Source: Octopus vulgaris (Eukaryota). Taken from it: a stretch of DNA of 64,000 bases. The notes beneath the pieces are model-generated. The model worked only from the letters and a program-made list of their open reading frames with translations, was not told where the DNA came from and made no database searches. The position numbers and the translations under genes are program-made. Below are positions 16,930 to 63,075 of the stretch, one piece after another. Position 1 is the stretch's first letter. The number at the start of each line of letters is the position of its first letter. The stretch is from NCBI GenBank assembly GCA_951406725.2, contig OX597816.1:41416001-41480000 (forward strand), given 5' to 3'.

Positions 16930-18290
16930 CATACATATATTCAAACATCCCCTACACTCTAGGAATAGAAGCAATCAACATTATGGTTAGACAACTAAAT
17001 CTATCAACTTCCCTCTCGTATCAAAAAGGAACTCATAGTAGAAGGACTAAGATTTATCTTAGAGAACAATTATTTTATATTTAATAATGACTACTTCCAA
17101 CAAAAATAGGACACAACAATGGGAACACGGACTGCACCTTGTTTTGCGAACCTGGTAATGGGCTATCTCGAAATTTAACTATACCACTCGAGTTATGTGG
17201 AAACTCCTGTTCAACCTACATTCAAAACAACTGGAAAAGATACCTCGATGACTGCTTCATCCTCTGGAATGAAAGTATAGAAAAAACTTTATTAATTCAA
17301 AACACTTCTAAATGCAATAAATGAAAACCTCCAATTCACGATAGAGTATAGCGAGGAACAACTGCCGTTTTTAGATATCTTTATTAAAACAAGGTCTGGA
17401 ACAAATCAGAGACAGATATATATTACAAACCCATCGACTCGAAACAGTAACTGCTATTTAATTCTTGCCACCCGAGACACACCAGGATAAATATCCCCTT
17501 TAGTTGAGCCAAAAGAATATGCACAATAGTGAGAGACACAAACACGTTATACACAATTCCAGAACTAAAAACTACACGCATCAATAGGAATTACCTACAT
17601 CACTTGATAGACAATACGATCCAGCGAGTCCTTAAATTCAATACACAGGAACTTAGACAACCAAGACCAAAGAAGGAAAAGAAATTGAAAACCCTGCCTT
17701 ACATCTCCACACGCAACCCACATAACATTGAGGCCTTCAACACTATACTACACTCCATAGTACAGCTCTACTTAAGAGGGACGTAAAGATGAATCGAATC
17801 CTCCAAACACACACCATCATCAAAAGTAAGAGGCAGTCAAAATCAATGAAGAGGATTTTAACCCAGGCCAAATTACACTCAACAATAACTACAAAACCGA
17901 CAGTAAAAAGTGCGGGAGGCCCAACTGTGGGATCTATATCAACATAATAGAAGGATCAGAATACTGATTGAAACAAGGCCAAAATTGTATCATAAAAACT
18001 AACTTTACGTGTGCATCGGGGAATTTGATTTACTTAATTATATGCTCGGGATGCAAACGGCAATTTATTGGAAACACAAAAACAGCCTACTTCTGAGGAT
18101 GGTGGTAAACAAAACCCAAACTAGAATTCCGGTATACAGGAAAATATCTGTCAGTGAACACATAGACAGATGTACATCCAAAACATATCCCAAATTCACA
18201 ACTTCTCCAATATTAAACTTCATAAACATTGCTAGCCAAAATGAACGCATTTCATAAGAAAGTATCGACCGAGTCTAAATTCTTTAACAC
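16930..18290 (+). pseudogene. Decayed Neptune-type Penelope-like RT + GIY-YIG
   Basis: Frameshifted YSNIPYTLGIEAI, TMGTRTAPCFANLVMGYLE, NNWKRYLDDCFILWN, LPYISTRNPHN, CGRPNCGI and FTCASGNLIY, colinear with ORF 38698-40851. Confidence 0.9.
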
Positions 18291-20755: not shown

Positions 20756-20807
<52 letters not shown>

Positions 20808-20809
<2 letters not shown>

Positions 20810-22216
20810 TAAACAGTAAAAATAATTACAGACATGGACAAGAACATGAAACGCCACAGAGACGACACAAGAACCACAGGACGGGACATTCGAAGCCCTC
20901 AGTCATCAGTCAAGAACCAGATCATCTTAGCAATTTCGGCTGATTAATCTTGAGATTGCTCCGATATGGGCAGCCCGCCACGGGAAATCTAAGCCAAGTG
21001 CATTAGATCCCCTGGAAGAAAGCTTCGAATGTATACAACACGAGGACGGAAAACGAACGAAGTACACGAACAAAAATACAGAATACGTGACAACAATAAG
21101 AATACAAAAACGTAAAAACAATAACGGTAAAAATAAAGTATAAAAAATAAATAAACAACAAAACAAAACCAGGACGTAGGACAAGGGTCTTTCGACAGGA
21201 CGAATTGAGCATGGGGCTGGCTTATGAAGTTGTGCCTAATGGCCACAGGGAGACGAACAAGTACGTGTTGCTTCAACGGCTGCTGGAACGAAAAGAGCGC
21301 TCAACAGCGGTCAGCGGTCACGTGAGAACAAAAGACAAGAGAAAGGGACAGATGAAAAGAGAGAGAAGGTGGACGAGGGAGGAGAAGAAAGAGACAGATC
21401 GAGGGGGCTGGAGGTGAGAGAGATAGAGAAACGTAGAAGGGGGGGGGAAACGGATGGAGAGGGAAAGAAAGGAGGGGGAATAAGGTAGGAGAGAGAGAGA
21501 GAAAGAAAGATTAAGAGTCGTATCAATGCTTGAGAAAAAAATATACTTATCGTATAAGGACAATTGTGGATACGTAGCCGCCGATTATATAGGTAAACAG
21601 TAAAAATAATTACAGACATGGACAAGAACATGAAACGCCACAGAGACGACACAAGAACCACAGGACGGGACATTCGAAGCCCTCAGTCATCAGTCAAGAA
21701 CCAGATCATCTTAGCAATTTCGGCTGATTAATCTTGAGATTGCTCCGATATGGGCAGCCCGCCACGGGAAATCTAAGCCAAGTGCATTAGATCCCCTGGA
21801 AGAAAGCTTCGAATGTATACAACACGAGGACGGAAAACGAACGAAGTACACGAACAAAAATACAGAATACGTGACAACAATAAGAATACAAAAACGTAAA
21901 AACAATAACGGTAAAAATAAAGTATAAAAAATAAATAAACAACAAAACAAAACCAGGACGTAGGACAAGGGTCTTTCGACAGGACGAATTGAGCATGGGG
22001 CTGGCTTATGAAGTTGTGCCTAATGGCCACAGGGAGACGAACAAGTACGTGTTGCTTCAACGGCTGCTGGAACGAAAAGAGCGCTCAACAGCGGTCAGCG
22101 GTCACGTGAGAACAAAAGACAAGAGAAAGGGACAGATGAAAAGAGAGAGAAGGTGGACGAGGGAGGAGAAGAAAGAGACAGATCGAGGGGGCTGGAGGTG
22201 AGAGAGATAGAGAAAC
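20808..22216 (-). mobile_element. Non-coding TA-anchored element family P1 as a partial tandem (two ~625-bp identical units, period 784 bp), pLTR-like
   Basis: 20808-21432 equals 21592-22216, and the ORF track is repeated at an offset of 784. It abuts (TA)n at 20807 and contains a structured RNA domain with CUGAUGA and GAAA. Confidence 0.85.
20886..21032 (-). ncRNA. Candidate permuted/pseudoknotted hammerhead ribozyme (second copy 21670-21816)
   Basis: The minus strand reads AGCAAUC-UCAAGA-UUAA-UCAG-CC-GAAA-UUGCU...UCUUGA-CUGAUGA-CUGA, enclosed by the 11-bp stem ACAUUCGAAGC/GCUUCGAAUGU. Confidence 0.6.
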
Positions 22217-29329: not shown

Positions 29330-30690
<1,361 letters not shown>

Positions 30691-38083: not shown

Positions 38084-38121
38084 CAGTACCGGTTTCGGTC
38101 ATTTTGAGACCTTTTCAACTG
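38084..38121 (-). ncRNA. Minimal type I hammerhead, U3-A8 core variant
   Basis: Minus strand CAG-TTGAAAA-GGTC-TCAAAAT-GACC-GAAAC-CG-GTA-CTG. Confidence 0.75.
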
Positions 38122-38697
38122 TAACGATTAAATAATTAAATTTAGAAAAATTTAGAAAAATTAGAAGAAAGGTTTTTTTAAAGGAATACTTCCATAGTAG
38201 TGTTCAGATATAGGTGGCATTCTGCCTTTCTCTGACTCCCTTGTTTGCACTTGTGTATTCGAGGTCGTTGTGAGTTCTTGAGGGGGTGGGAGTGGGAAAA
38301 TCTGGGCTGGTCAGTGGCGACCGGCAGTCGCTGCGTAGGCGTTATACTTAAAGACGTTAGTGACAAGGTTAAGGGGTAGAAGGTGGAGAAGTAGAAGAAG
38401 AAGAAGAAGAAGAAGAAGAAGAAGAAGATGACGGTGCCGATGATGATGACGATGAAGAAGAAGAAGGAGAAGGAGAAGATGACGATGATGATGGTGGTGA
38501 TGACGATGACGACGATGATGATGGTAATGATGATGATGAAGAAGAAGAAGAGGAAGAAGAAGAAAAAAAAAAAAACAGAGAAGGGAGAATATGAATGGGT
38601 GAAGATATAGCTGTGATGGGGCGATTAGTAATGGATTCTATGGAATGTAATATTTGTGTGTGTATATATATTTCTTTTATTCTTAAGTTGAGGTATA

Positions 38698-41479: not shown

Positions 41480-41698
41480 GTTAATCCAAACAAGAAGGTA
41501 CAAAAAATCACAACAACGCGAGGACGTGGAACAAATATAGTATTATTGGACGCTCAGGAAAGAAGGGAAGAAGGAGGGTTTAACGTTTCGAGTGGAGCTC
41601 TTCGTCGGAAACATAAGAGAAGGAAAGATCTCGAGAAGGGAAGACAGAGGAAAAAAAATCGCCAACGGTACACACGAGGTCACATTTTGAAATCCAGG

Positions 41699-42814: not shown

Positions 42815-45526
42815 CAGTTTGTATGTCTGTGTGTCTGTCCAGTGCCTCAAGGGCGCCTTTGTGTGCCATAGTGTAATCGTCCCATACGATGAGTTTGCAT
42901 CTGCGCAGAATGTCGGCCTGTTCTGAGTTCTTGGCGATGTTGCAGATAGGTGACTCGGACTTTGCCAGATCGAACGGGATTCTGAAGGCAGAGTGGGCGG
43001 TTCTGTCACCCGGAAGCAACGTCGCCACGATACCAGAGGAGGCTACAGCCAGGGCAATGTCCGTGTTGCGTCTGACCTCCGCCAGAGGTGTGTGAGCAAT
43101 CACACACACCCAAATGCCTTCAAAACACACACACACACCCAAATGCCTTCAAAACACACATACACGCCGATGCCGTGCGCGCGTGCCTTAAGTCGTGAGC
43201 TCACCCTGACCAGGTCTTTTAACCGATTCTGATGAAACTTGACACACACATAGCTAAATGTCATAATTCAAAACTAACGCAGCGAAAATTTTGAAAAGTT
43301 TCCAGAGTTTTGAAAAGAATCGATAAATTCGACATGGGGTCGAGAATCTATGCTTTTCATATGCAACACATTTTCTGTTGTAGTTTTCGCAACTTGCAAT
43401 CGATTTTCACCATGTTACCCTAAGAAACTTAATTCTGACGTTAGTTTTCCATGCAATACCTTACCATCAGAAAAAATCGATAAAATCATGCCATTTTTTG
43501 GAAATCGCGTTCAAATTCAAGATGACATATTTTCGACAATATCTTAAACAAATTGGCAGGAACTTTTTTTTAAATTCACAGCGAGCATCATGTCTGCTCC
43601 AAGGAGCTATATGGCCCTTTTTATTCCAATAGGATACTTTATTACTGGAAAAAATCGGTTAATTAAATCATATGTGGCACACATAGCAAACCGATTTGTG
43701 TATTAAACAGAAACCACAGACTGTCTAGGGGACGCAACTCGACCTTCTTTAACTCTCTTATTCCCCCAACTAACTATTAAACAGCTATCGATAATTCAAC
43801 CCACAGGAGGAAATCTAGACTTAATCTTCAAGGTATCCCACATACAAACCAAAGATTAGTGCCCTTCCGTCGAGATCACGTTCACCAACTTCATTTACAA
43901 TTTTGCGCTTATTCAACTCGAAGACGCTGTCATCGATATGGGTGGTTCTGCTTTAACGGACTACGGCCTTCCACTAACCACACGACAACACGCCAATGTT
44001 ATGTTTGCTGAATTGTTACGCCGAAACTTCCTACTGCATTGAGGAACTGCACTAGTACGTCCAAGATAATGCCACGACTGCTTCCAGACCAGCGCATAGC
44101 CTACAACACCATCGTAGACTCTGTCAGACAGCAACGTGGGGGGATTTACTTTCTTGACGCACCTGGCGGCACTGGCAAAATATTCGTCACGAAACTAATT
44201 CTGGCGGAGGTCAGACGCAACACGGACATTGTCCTGGCTGTAGCTTCCTCTGGTATCGCGGCCACGTTGCTTCCGGGTGGCAGAACCACCCACTCTGCCT
44301 TCAGACTCCCGCTCGATCTGGCAAAGTCCGAGTCACCTATCTGCAACATCGCCACGAACTCAGAACAGGCCGACATTCTGCGCAGATACGAAATCATCGT
44401 ATGGGACGAGTGTACTATGGCACACAAAGGCGCCCTTGAGGCACTGGACAGGTCCCTGCAAGACATCAGAGATTCTACGGCTCGCATGGGAAGATTGACT
44501 TTACTTCTTTCGGGAGACTTCAGGCAGACTCTACCCGTTATTCCAAAAGGAACCCGTGCCGATGCCGAGCGCGCGTGCCTTAAGTCGTCAGCTCTTTGGG
44601 CACATGTGCGGCCCTTGCACCTCCAAACTAACATGCGCGCGCAGTTGGTTGGTGACAGCGGATCCGCTGCATTCTCCAGGGAGCATTTATCGCTCGGTGA
44701 AAATGGGATGCCGGCTGATGCGGACAGCTGCGTTCAATTGGACTCACTTTGCACCACTGTCGACACCCTTGATAGCCTCCGGGACGCTGTCTTCCACGAC
44801 CTACAAAACAATTTACGTGACCTAAAATGGCTGGCAGACAGAACTATTCTCGTACCCAAAAATACAACCGGCAACTCCAACTCTACAAATATATAGATAG
44901 GACAGCAGACCCCGCCAAGCTTGCCGATTATCCTGTTGAATTCCTGAATTCACTTGAACTGCCAGGCCTGCCGCCACACATCCTGAAGTTAAAAATCGGT
45001 GCGCCCATTATACTCATCAGGAATTTGGTTCCCCCTAAACAGTGCAACGGCACACATCTGGTTGTGAAACATTGGCACCACATTTAATAACGGCCACAAT
45101 ACTTACCGGTTGTGGGAAGGGAGAGGACGTCTTCATTCCACGCATGCACCTTCAACCGTCGTGCGCTGACCTACCAATCCACTTCAGGCGTTCTCAGTTT
45201 CCTGTTAAACTCTGCTTCACAATGTCCATCAATAAATCCCAAGGCCAAACGCTACAAGTCGCTGGGTTACATTTGGGAGAACAGTGCTTCGCCCATGGTC
45301 AGCTCTACGTGGGCTGTTCACGCGTTGGGCGCGCAATGATGTTTTCATGTTTTCGCCCAAAGGGACAGCTAGGAACGTCGTATACACAGAAGTATTGGAG
45401 TGAAGAGAAGACATTGCAACCTACACATGCGCCTTCGTTCCCTAGAGGGAAAGGACTAGATCGGGATTAGTCGTTGCCTACTAGGGGCTCTTACATACCC
45501 GGGCAACGCCGGGCTATACTGCTAGT
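42775..45526 (+). mobile_element. Internally deleted Helitron
   Basis: 5' (TA)nAAAAGACAGTTTGTATGTCTGT, ACCGATTCTGATGAAACTTGACACAC, helicase remnants, 3' hairpin CCCGGGCAACGCCGGG (45498-45513) and CTAG-T terminus (45522-45526). Confidence 0.88.
43900..45400 (+). pseudogene. Helitron RepHel Pif1-type helicase domain, frameshifted
   Basis: FLDAPGGTGK, ASSGIAATLLPGGRTTHS, IVWDECTM, GDFRQTLPVI, LPPHILKLKIGAPIILIRNL, QFPVKLCFTMSINKSQGQTL and FAHGQLYVGCSRVG. Confidence 0.93.
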
Positions 45527-50778: not shown

Positions 50779-50860
<82 letters not shown>

Positions 50861-50861
50861 G

Positions 50862-51385
50862 TAATGAATATCTACACCGCGATTCCTTACGAATACAGAA
50901 TAGGAGCTATATGATTCTGACTCGAAAAATTTCCAATGTGACATTCCAGACTGAATGAGAAAAGGGCTTATCATAGAAGGGCTAAAATTCATTCTAGAAA
51001 GTTTCTTTTTTAGCTTCAACTAAAATACCTACATAGAAAAATCTAGGCCCGCGGTGGGATCAAAAGGTAATCTCTACTTTTACTAATCTTGTCATGGCAT
51101 ACTTAGGAGTCCAAATAGACCCCAAATTGAAACTTGGTAACCGTTTCCAAAACTAGTTACACACCAACTTGACGATTTCTTTATTTCATGGTCACATGAT
51201 CTTTATCCTGTCTTGGAATAAAAAAAAGAATTAACATTAATCGTAGTATCCAATTGGCAATGAAATACAACCACAAACAACTGATTGTTCTGGACATTTT
51301 AATCATAAAATGAGGTACCAACAATGGAACCAACATCTACTTTAAACCAAATGACTGAGAATAATATCTTTTATTTTCAACTATT
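50862..51385 (+). pseudogene. Heavily decayed PLE reverse transcriptase fragment
   Basis: NIYTAIP, LIIEGLKFILE, TFTNLVMAYL, LDDFFISW, QL.VLDILIIK and NIYFKPND are colinear with ORF 38698-40851. Confidence 0.7.
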
Positions 51386-58633: not shown

Positions 58634-59915
58634 CATTCAGTAGTTTTATTTTTATAGCGTGCTTTCACTTCACTACCGAGCACAGCTCTCTATGCCTTGG
58701 GTATGTGCTGTAATTTGTTGTGATGCTCTGATGGTTATTGTATGGAAAGTGTTCTGCGTAGGATGTGTGCAGTGCCTAATAGTGCAATTTTCTGTATGTT
58801 ATATGTGTTTGTAAGTCCTGGTGTTTTTGTTATATATTTGTCTGAATATTTTTTTTATCATGCCTAATGCACCTACTATGATAGGAATTGTTTCTGTTTT
58901 CAGATTCCACATTCTAGTTACCTCTATTTCCAGGTCTTTGTATTTTGAGAGTTTCTCCATTTCTTTTAGAGACACGTTGTCATCAGCCGGTATTGATACA
59001 TCAATTAGAAAGCATTTTTTTCTTCATGATCTCTGACAACTATATCTGGTCTGTTGGCCTTAATTTCTCTATCTGTGTGTATCGGCATATCCCAGAGTAT
59101 GGTTGCTTTCTCGTTTTCTGTGACCTTTTCTGGTGTGTGCCTATACCATCTTTTTTCTGTTGTTATTCCATAATGTTGGCATAGCTTCCAATGTATCTAG
59201 GTTCCAACTCTGTCATGTCTGTGAATATATTCCTTCTTAGCCAAGACTGGGCAGCTAGAGATAATATGATTTATTGATTTTTGTCCATCTCCGCATATTC
59301 TGCAGTTACTTGTAATATTTCTTTTCATTACATGTTTTTGGTAATTTCTGGTGGGGAGGCTTTGGTCTTGTGCTGCAATTAAAAATCCCTCTGTTTCTGC
59401 TTTGAGTCCTGAGCTTCTCAACCATTGCTGGGATTTTTCTTTGTCTATTTCTTTTGCGTTTAGTTTAGTGCAGTATTTACCATGAAGGGGCTTTTCTTGC
59501 CATCGTTTTATCATGGTTCGTTGCTGTTCTATTTTTAGTTTGGATTTCATTTGTTTTATAGCTTTTGTTGTTTCTTCATCTTCTTCTTCTTCTTCATGTT
59601 TATTAGGTGGTATGATTTCTTGTTTGTATTTGTCAGCTTCCTTAAATACTGAGAACAGTTTTTTGTTTTGCTCGTGTTTTGCCGCTATCTGGATCAGTTT
59701 TTCTTCCTTCTGAAGTAGATATTTTTGCAGTCCTATGGTGGTTATTTTATAGTAGTTTTCCAGCTGTATAAGGCCTCTACCACCTTCTATACGTTGTATA
59801 TATAGTCTTTCTATGTCAGATTTTGGGTGATGCATCCTAGATCCTGTCATTATTTTTCTTGTTTTCCTATTTTGGTCAGTTCATTTCGTGTCCAGTTAAG
59901 GATATTGTAGCTGTT
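58634..59915 (-). mobile_element. R4/Dong-type non-LTR element (restriction-like endonuclease), 5'-truncated, in (TAA)n
   Basis: HHPKSDIERLYIQRIEGGRGL, AAQDQSL, CRICG..INHIISSC and HRHDRV, then a premature stop. TAA tracts on both sides. Confidence 0.9.
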
Positions 59916-60570: not shown

Positions 60571-61937
<1,367 letters not shown>

Positions 61938-63075
61938 TTAGTCTCTTTTTCAAATCTCTTTCGTCACACATCCAGTGTTCTCTTCAGTTACTCTTTATTT
62001 CACGTGTCTCTTCTTGTTCCGCTTATTACATTTTATTTCTCCGTATTCTTATCTGCCTATGCGGTTGCAGCTGTATCTGTTTATCTGTGTGTGCTTACGC
62101 ATGCGTGTATGTACAACTGATTAGTAAGTGTGCTTACTATGTGTGCTTTGCGTGCTTGTATATGTCTTTCCATACTACGCTGTACCCGTGTCTTTTTTGT
62201 CTATTTTGTTTATTTATTCCCTTCCTTACTCTCTCTTCATTCGTCAGAATGCGCAGTGTGGTGCAGTGGTGCGTGTTATTATTCCATTCATGTTTTCTGT
62301 TGAAACTTGATCTGTGTATTACAACATGTGTCCTCCGTAATCTGTCTGAATATCATGTCTCTTCTATAATTGCTAATATCATAACATCTACGTTATTAAC
62401 CGTGCCTCTATGTTCCAAACTGAGCATGTTGGTGGAACACTGACGAGCGTTTCTTCTCCTTTAGCGTTCACCTATCCTCTCACCTGTCCTACGTGTTGTC
62501 TCCAAATTGTATTGTCTGGTTTCTGCACCCTCCATCACTACAAATTATACTGAAGACTACATTTCTGAAAGTTTACCTGTGGATTCATGGTACACTCCAT
62601 ACAATTGCTATACATGCAGGGAGTACTTTCAGATACATATGTTGTACAGATCAGGGATGGATTTTACGGGGTCCCCGGGCTCTCTACTACTTTAATTTGT
62701 AGATTCGTCATACCTAAGGTGTTTCTAAAAAGATGTGATAATTCGCCCCTAAGAAAAGATAAATCTATAGATAAATATAATAAATATTTAAAAGACATGA
62801 ATGCAAACAGTATAATAAGTAAACCCATGAACACACACACAAAACACACATACTAAAAGCATAGACCCCCCACAGACGCACAGACACAGATACAGACGAG
62901 AGCTCATAGAAATATACTGATGGCACTCCAGAAAGACAACACGGAATAAGCAGAAAAAGAGGAACGCGAGGGATAAAAGTCTTTGAAGCGGTCACAGGCT
63001 GTATGGCAAAAGAACTTGAACAAAAAAGGAAAATAAAAATAAGTTGAAATGACGACCAAATATATAATGCGTGCA
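61938..63075 (-). mobile_element. Old PLE 3' fragment (decayed GIY-YIG) with probable inverted 3' copy
   Basis: Minus-strand remnants GELSHLFRNTL..LQIKVVESPG, ETTRRTGERI, SSVFHQHA, RQITE and RKHEWNN. An HHR-like CTGAAGA..GAAA lies at 61950-61990, and 62940-63030 resembles the reverse complement of 61940-62030. Confidence 0.55.

Follow-up and report, generated by a model that had tools for sequence, protein, structure and literature searches.

A candidate self-cleaving hammerhead variant in a high-copy repeat of Octopus vulgaris, with stem II drawn from upstream of the predicted cut

The window, by which we mean the whole 64,000-nucleotide stretch of Octopus vulgaris DNA analysed here, carries on its minus strand a real, conserved and high-copy variant of the hammerhead motif. 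Judging from the sequences of this motif and its relatives, we put at about three in four the probability that it cleaves itself using a stem II strand that lies upstream of the cleavage site. Such a layout interrupts the block that joins CUGANGA to stem II. This interruption appears to be new, and it corresponds to none of the six permutations of Eckert et al.

The motif sits in a 784-bp repeat unit (20802-21585, minus strand) that is non-autonomous and retrozyme-like. Its 3′ end joins a (TA)n target repeat (20762-20807), and the predicted cut follows unit base 632. Head to tail with the full unit lies a 5′-truncated upstream unit (21586-22216, minus strand; unit bases 154-784) that is 100% identical and holds a second, identical copy of the motif (21670-21816, minus strand; predicted cut between 21738 and 21737), spaced 784 bp from the first. 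The unit contains no ORF of a Penelope-like element (PLE), no similarity to reverse transcriptase (RT) in a tblastn search with the window's PLE protein as query, and no Naiad-type ORF, with its N-terminal GIY-YIG and C-terminal RT. Across 20 regions of 9.5 kb, the long ORFs upstream of the motif belonged to APE-type LINEs or were of low complexity, and no PLE ORF linked to the motif was among them. A non-autonomous Penelope-like element or a non-LTR retrozyme is laid out in this way. Like the animal non-LTR retrozymes described in bioRxiv 10.64898/2026.07.22.740005, the unit is non-coding, tandem and shorter than 1 kb, with one ribozyme motif per unit and a link to PLE pseudo-LTRs. The hammerheads in the described part of that collection are of type I, whereas the one here is not, and its fold would escape the type I descriptors applied in that work.

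The unit is abundant. In the 2.8-Gb genome, a 201-nt probe matched at 100% in the best 40 of 2373 candidates, and a 27-nt stretch specific to the window's subfamily occurs at 247 places in which the cut site is read through intact. The 3′ end is constant in 29 of 30 loci, while 5′ ends vary and arrays reach up to three units. Contigs from four sequencing runs, whose RNA origin is a guess, cover the unit and display no joints, start sites or end sites. At the unit junction (21592-21560, minus strand), TATATAA stands right at the unit start, and solo copies start at unit base 41 in 3/30 loci and at base 72 in 2/30; these are possibly a TATA box and a start site. The motif-bearing tail also forms inverted head-to-head pairs at three loci (L015 2179-2578, L042 and L138), an arrangement described for PLE insertions.

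Read 5′ to 3′ on the minus strand, the motif begins with one strand of an outer stem, P0 (21018-21032; 15 bp, -20.9 kcal/mol as a duplex), which holds the chain ends. Hairpin H follows (20978-21015) and ends 2 nt before G10.1. Next come the stem II 5′ strand GGCUG (10.1-10.5; 20971-20975), upstream of the cleavage site, the interaction helix strand CCAUAUC (20963-20969), and the stem III 3′ strand with C17 (20954-20960; AGCAAU at 20960-20955, C17 at 20954). The predicted cut falls after 20954. Beyond it are the stem I strand UCAAGA (1.1-1.6; 20948-20953), a UUAAU linker from stem I to stem II (20943-20947), the stem II 3′ strand CAGCC (11.5-11.1; 20938-20942), and GAAA (G12-A15.1; 20937-20934), which together with the stem III 5′ strand spans 20929-20937 and is invariant in alignments A1 and A2, partly by selection. 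The second interaction strand GAUCUGG (20917-20923) and the second stem I strand UCUUGA (2.6-2.1; 20910-20915) then lead into CUGAUGA (C3-A9; 20903-20909). Stem II does not follow there; instead, the 3′ strand of P0 (20886-20900) begins 2 nt after A9. The CCAUAUC/GAUCUGG helix ties stems I and II, as does the interaction helix of Eckert et al., starting one base past the upstream stem II strand and ending one base before stem I. The core residues CUGANGA, GAAA and NUH and the A15.1-U16.1 pair are all present, in homologues that were partly selected on the core.

Much of this anatomy had been recognised in a first-pass annotation. Its quoted strings lie at their minus-strand positions, including the outer stem formed by 21032-21018 with 20900-20886, and stem III (AGCAAU/AUUGCU) and stem I (UCAAGA/UCUUGA) each have six Watson-Crick pairs. 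It correctly placed the motif close to the 3′ end of a Penelope-like unit that targets (TA)n, predicted the cut between 20954 and 20953, and described the order NUH, GAAA, CUGANGA as pseudoknotted and as no circular permutation of types I, II or III. That order is not new in itself, since Eckert et al. described and tested it in 2023 as type SGC. The tandem twin 784 bp upstream and the CCAUAUC/GAUCUGG helix go beyond the earlier description.

An any-order descriptor built on CUGANGA, GAAA and UH, with six or more Watson-Crick pairs in each of stems I and III, matched twice in the window, once at the motif and once at its tandem twin, and had no match in 100 of 100 dinucleotide shuffles. Plain minimum-free-energy folding, which does not extend to pseudoknots, recovered P0 and H (z = -2.2), and an Rfam scan gave no match at the gathering score. 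Across the genome, three loose patterns in S, G, C order matched 5987, 1205 and 3460 times, compared with 0, 8 and 21 for the reversed patterns. A pattern scan of metagenomes returned three matches, none with the stems on inspection, and we took these as chance. At one further locus (L105; G000:C1:195237070 and 195240578), a GAAA-then-CUGACGA match recurs at 3.5-kb spacing, and the six-helix fold is not evident.

To follow the helices through the family, we used a MAFFT alignment of 23 copies that was not fitted to the model. The six-helix model is 81.5% paired in it, and 22 of 45 pairs have changed on both sides. None of 500 shuffles, which ignore the relatedness of the copies, paired as highly, and slid controls gave 24-46%. 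Stems I and III are 94% and 95% paired, with four pairs in each changed on both sides, and the interaction helix is 84% paired, with changes on both sides in five of its seven pairs. P0 and H covary weakly (73% and 76% paired). Alignment A1, of distant families, is off by one or two columns at stem II and the cleavage block, and it was therefore excluded from the pair counts.

The same alignment distinguishes between two possible partners for the strand that precedes GAAA. The first-pass annotation had proposed UCAG/CUGA as stem II, with a CC bulge before GAAA and a 4-nt linker, and had treated GGCUG/CAGCC as an alternative helix. UCAG and CUGA are complementary, with four Watson-Crick pairs in the window's subfamily, but they are only 42.9% paired in the 23 relatives, and 162 of 500 shuffles do as well. 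GGCUG/CAGCC is 81.7% paired, has four of five pairs changed on both sides and is equalled by 0/500 shuffles. With this pairing, the supposed CC bulge is part of CAGCC, and the linker is UUAAU. Because GGCUG/CAGCC is conserved and UCAG/CUGA is not, CUGAUGA is separated from stem II.

A broader set agrees with this placement. We extracted 106 unique copies in 14 clusters from fetched loci, using nothing but stems I and III to locate the cleavage block and leaving L111-L113 out of the tally. With stems I and III and C11.1 as selection criteria and the best partner taken within a 30-nt window, an upstream stem II of at least 5 bp occurs in 76 of the 106, against 16.5 expected when the upstream stretch is shuffled. 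Through this upstream strand, the canonical G10.1-C11.1 pair adjoining G12 is G-C in 21 of the 23 aligned copies. The strand lies 34-43 nt before GAAA in every family representative except one truncated copy; 12 of 33 clusters, singletons and many of them truncated, were left out of this family comparison. Stem II itself exists in four unrelated versions (GGCUG/CAGCC, GGGCA/UGCCC, GAAGG/CCUUC and GAGCA/UGCUC), and Naiad tails have GACACC/GGUGUC. Support is good for an upstream stem II and weaker for the exact junction.

That junction lies between A9 and G10.1, where P0 and hairpin H are likely to bridge the step inside the core. In a two-strand fold of the flanks, 12 of 19 family representatives have at most 2 nt between A9 and the start of P0 and at most 3 nt between the end of H and G10.1, and in five representatives all three junction steps are free of unpaired bases. 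Each step in the window's copy leaves two bases unpaired, unlike the tight junctions elsewhere, and in 7/19 representatives the P0-H junction is absent from the two-strand fold. The set comprised 18 representatives and the window; two of 21 representatives were left out for a stem II shorter than 5 bp, and the copies dropped were L075, L053 and the truncated L100. We chose the two-strand fold because constrained single-strand folding under-predicted P0 across a large forced loop, and we did not rely on an automatic parse of P0 and H, which was noisy.

We found no tested precedent in the literature for a two-helix insertion at this step. The nearest is the CChMVd (+) hammerhead, which tolerates one extra base, an A, at A9-G10.1, and in which A10C or A10G is strongly harmful (PMC3705267). 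The site of insertion is shared; one base is inserted there, whereas two helices and the chain ends are inserted here. The core insertions given by Perreault et al. 2011 in the portion available (PMC3088659) are of 1-2 nt only, and the available portion of PMC3376415 has no passage on the extra A.

How does this layout relate to the known hammerheads? As far as the accessible text of Eckert et al. 2023 (PMC10085705) goes, blocks S, G and C are assumed to be uninterruptible, giving six permutations, of which SGC and CSG were validated. Neither was found there in the genome of any known organism, and CSG came from two metagenomic sequences. The motif has the block order S, G, C, which excludes the pseudoknot-free three-way junctions of types I, II and III (CGS, GSC and SCG). 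It shares with type SGC (HRIMA-1 and variants) the order of cleavage site, GAAA and CUGANGA, all core residues, a short linker between stems I and II, and an interaction helix at their other ends. In type SGC, however, the stem II strand directly follows CUGANGA, whereas here it lies upstream of the cleavage site. Because block C is not intact, having no stem II strand 0-2 nt after CUGANGA, we do not file the motif as type SGC.

The closest likeness in detail is to the validated CSG-1. Both have a 5-bp stem II strand, 1 nt, a 7-nt interaction strand, 2 nt and the cleavage block, followed by the same five letters UUAAU, stem II and GAAA, and the cyclic order is that of CSG-1 and CSG-2. In type CSG, an intact block C comes first, and the module of second interaction strand, stem I and CUGANGA precedes and joins stem II. 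In the octopus motif, this module sits at the 3′ end and CUGAUGA is the last core element. Moving the module to the 3′ end is what cuts block C. The motif likely works as the SGC and CSG ribozymes do.

A similar arrangement recurs in Naiads, a PLE clade in which Craig et al. 2021 (PMC8557442) reported no canonical hammerhead and flagged only 'HHR_core' or 'half_core' in the entries available. The annotation's suggested link to a clade described as lacking hammerheads is borne out by the same fold in Naiad tails. In the octopus genome, 12 of 30 Naiad-RT loci have a motif tail 0.7-1.4 kb downstream on the same strand (10 of them nearly complete), and none has one on the other strand. Remnants of the Naiad-type ORF (N-terminal GIY-YIG, C-terminal RT) precede the tails of a related family. 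Of 733 Naiad candidates we scored 150; the copies are broken, and the longest open frame in the 149 matches measures 300 aa. Three loci found by a Naiad coding motif are likewise broken, with no tail in range. The genome also matches exactly a 25-nt motif of the published Octopus Naiad.

In the supplement of Craig et al., we parsed tails by eye, covering 13 of 54 entries. The split-core order is present in six tails: Naiad_Bfor, Naiad_Obim, Naiad_Ovul, two cnidarian entries and the Acropora entry (before Naiad_Anas). Naiad_Esco conforms partially, and four tails (Mmer, Omin, Adux and Skow-2) gave no parse by eye. The catalytic residues, again by eye, are all kept in the Naiad tails covered, from ctenophore to octopus. 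Two nematode tails, standing before >Naiad_Hcon and >Naiad_Hpol in File S5, read by eye as plain type CSG, with block C intact and long interaction helices. The window's unit resembles Naiads, as far as that source describes them, in its (TA)n targets, partial tandems, 5′ truncation and six-helix fold in the 3′ tail. It differs in having no ORF, and no sequence similarity to a Naiad tail was detected beyond the fold. Neither a split core nor a Naiad hammerhead turned up in the literature, covering few subscription journals.

Cutting of the RNA, followed by copying of the 3′ product, should give insertions that start at the cut or slightly after it and rarely just before. The genome fits this expectation. 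(TA)n is joined exactly at +1 in 108 loci and at -2, where the microhomology is better, in 11. Reverse-strand starts, counted about once per locus in windows of ~15-20 nt, number 797 at -9 to +12, 79 at -17 to -3 and 73 at about +39 to +59, with differing anchors and no normalisation. Among the matches listed, and by eye, starts fall at +1 or later rather than upstream in 34 of 34 distinct loci, eight of them exactly at +1 (binomial P = 5e-9). The corresponding counts, likewise by eye among the matches listed, are 34/36 in a sequence-unrelated family (binomial P = 5e-8) and 36/42, with five exactly at +1, in the window's own subfamily (P = 4e-6). Most starts in the pile-up lie at +3 to +15 rather than exactly at +1. 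TA microhomology inflates +9 to +11, yet a perfect ATAT at -14 to -11 takes only 3 of 42. Among 30 sampled +1 copies, 29 are solo inserts ending in (TA)n 126-178 nt on. The 30 have 30 different flanks and 11 haplotypes, eight of these belonging to the CUGAUGA subfamily, so +1 copies arose many times. The excess of shortened copies starting at the predicted cut suggests, indirectly, that the motif cuts in living cells.

Several other readings deserve weight. That the complementarity arose by chance within a repeat has in its favour only that the core words are short, and we give it practically no credence: the forward patterns vastly outnumber the reversed ones, and six-helix covariation together with 0/100 shuffles for the any-order descriptor leads us to reject it. 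It is improbable, though less remote, that the motif is an ordinary type SGC ribozyme whose stem II comes from the strand after CUGAUGA, either as UCAG/CUGA with a CC bulge or in a slipped register, the upstream helix being an off-state or switch. Type SGC has been validated elsewhere (PMC10085705), the window's subfamily does keep its four UCAG/CUGA pairs, and one or another of six slipped downstream registers reaches at least 4 bp in 52 of 106 copies, so a competing pairing exists. That register, however, varies between families and is missing from Naiad tails, and the contiguous canonical register, directly after CUGANGA, reaches 3 bp in 0/106. UCAG/CUGA also fares no better than many shuffles, leaves C11.1 unpaired, competes with the 15-bp P0 and is worth -2.0 kcal/mol as a duplex, against -6.8 for GGCUG/CAGCC. 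AUCAG can pair in addition with the core's own CUGAU (-3.1 kcal/mol).

A rival we consider unlikely, though the most serious of these, accepts the fold and denies that it cuts itself: the motif would need a PLE protein or a second RNA copy, or would act only as a signal for protein binding or priming, and insertion starts would pile up through a transcription start, some other nuclease or a stalled RT. The many intact read-through copies and tandems, the loose junction in the window's subfamily and the spread of most starts over +3 to +15 would all suit it. A stalled RT, on the other hand, should stop on the 3′ side of P0, a strong stem, and the counts there equal the baseline. The step in start points instead falls at the bond that the hammerhead predicts in two sequence-unrelated families, and Naiad tails from ctenophore to octopus keep all catalytic residues. 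Self-cleavage with the upstream stem II remains our preferred reading.

The window may also contain a helper for the unit. [quoted passage not shown] Its family is young and high-copy, with many 784-aa open frames in the genome, and we regard it as a candidate trans helper. Its tail (~38090-38130, minus strand) has a minimal type I hammerhead with the core UUGAAAA, U3 and A8 replacing C3 and G8, which every one of 30 matches shares, these coming from 26 of 30 loci. Elsewhere, a short PLE-like tail at 41500-41660 (minus strand) has a minimal hammerhead-like stretch (core CCGACGA) and ends at (TA)n, and decayed PLE RT or endonuclease remnants lie at 16935-18266, 29371-30009 and 50858-51382 (all plus strand). 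The window also holds a PIF1-like helicase ORF, possibly a Helitron piece (44012-44896, plus strand), and two zf-RVT fragments by (TTA)n repeats, which are LINE 3′ remnants (59197-59880 and 60815-61963, minus strand).

The most likely mechanism runs as follows. A multi-helix junction formed by P0 and H would stand in for the covalent A9-10.1 link, and the usual catalytic core would form once CUGAUGA and the 3′ strand of P0 had been transcribed, the RNA cutting part of the time. Hammerhead-cut ends bear a 5′-OH, and retrozymes form circles. A PLE reverse transcriptase acting in trans could prime at a (TA)n nick, ~150 nt downstream of the cut. Where it stopped at the 5′ end of cut RNA, short inserts of 125-180 nt would result; full and tandem inserts would follow where the RNA it copied was uncut, multimeric or circular and it read on.

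Taken as a whole, the motif probably represents a seventh way in which nature wires a hammerhead: the core is open between A9 and G10.1, two helices clamp it again, and the ribozyme is active in thousands of copies. On this account it would be the missing Naiad ribozyme, from ctenophores to octopuses, with the plain CSG form of nematode Naiads as its source by a single module move and its cutting recorded in insertion start points. If so, the stated rule that the CUGANGA-stem II block is uninterruptible would no longer hold, and non-circularly permuted hammerheads, hitherto of metatranscriptomes and metagenomes, would be present in thousands of copies in the chromosomes of animals. From the step in 5′ ends, in vivo ribozyme activity could be read in a genome alone, and a core closed by an external helix would be a natural switch point for ribozyme engineering. 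For the Naiads themselves, the split core would explain the apparent lack of hammerheads and so remove that argument against a role for ribozymes in PLE transposition.
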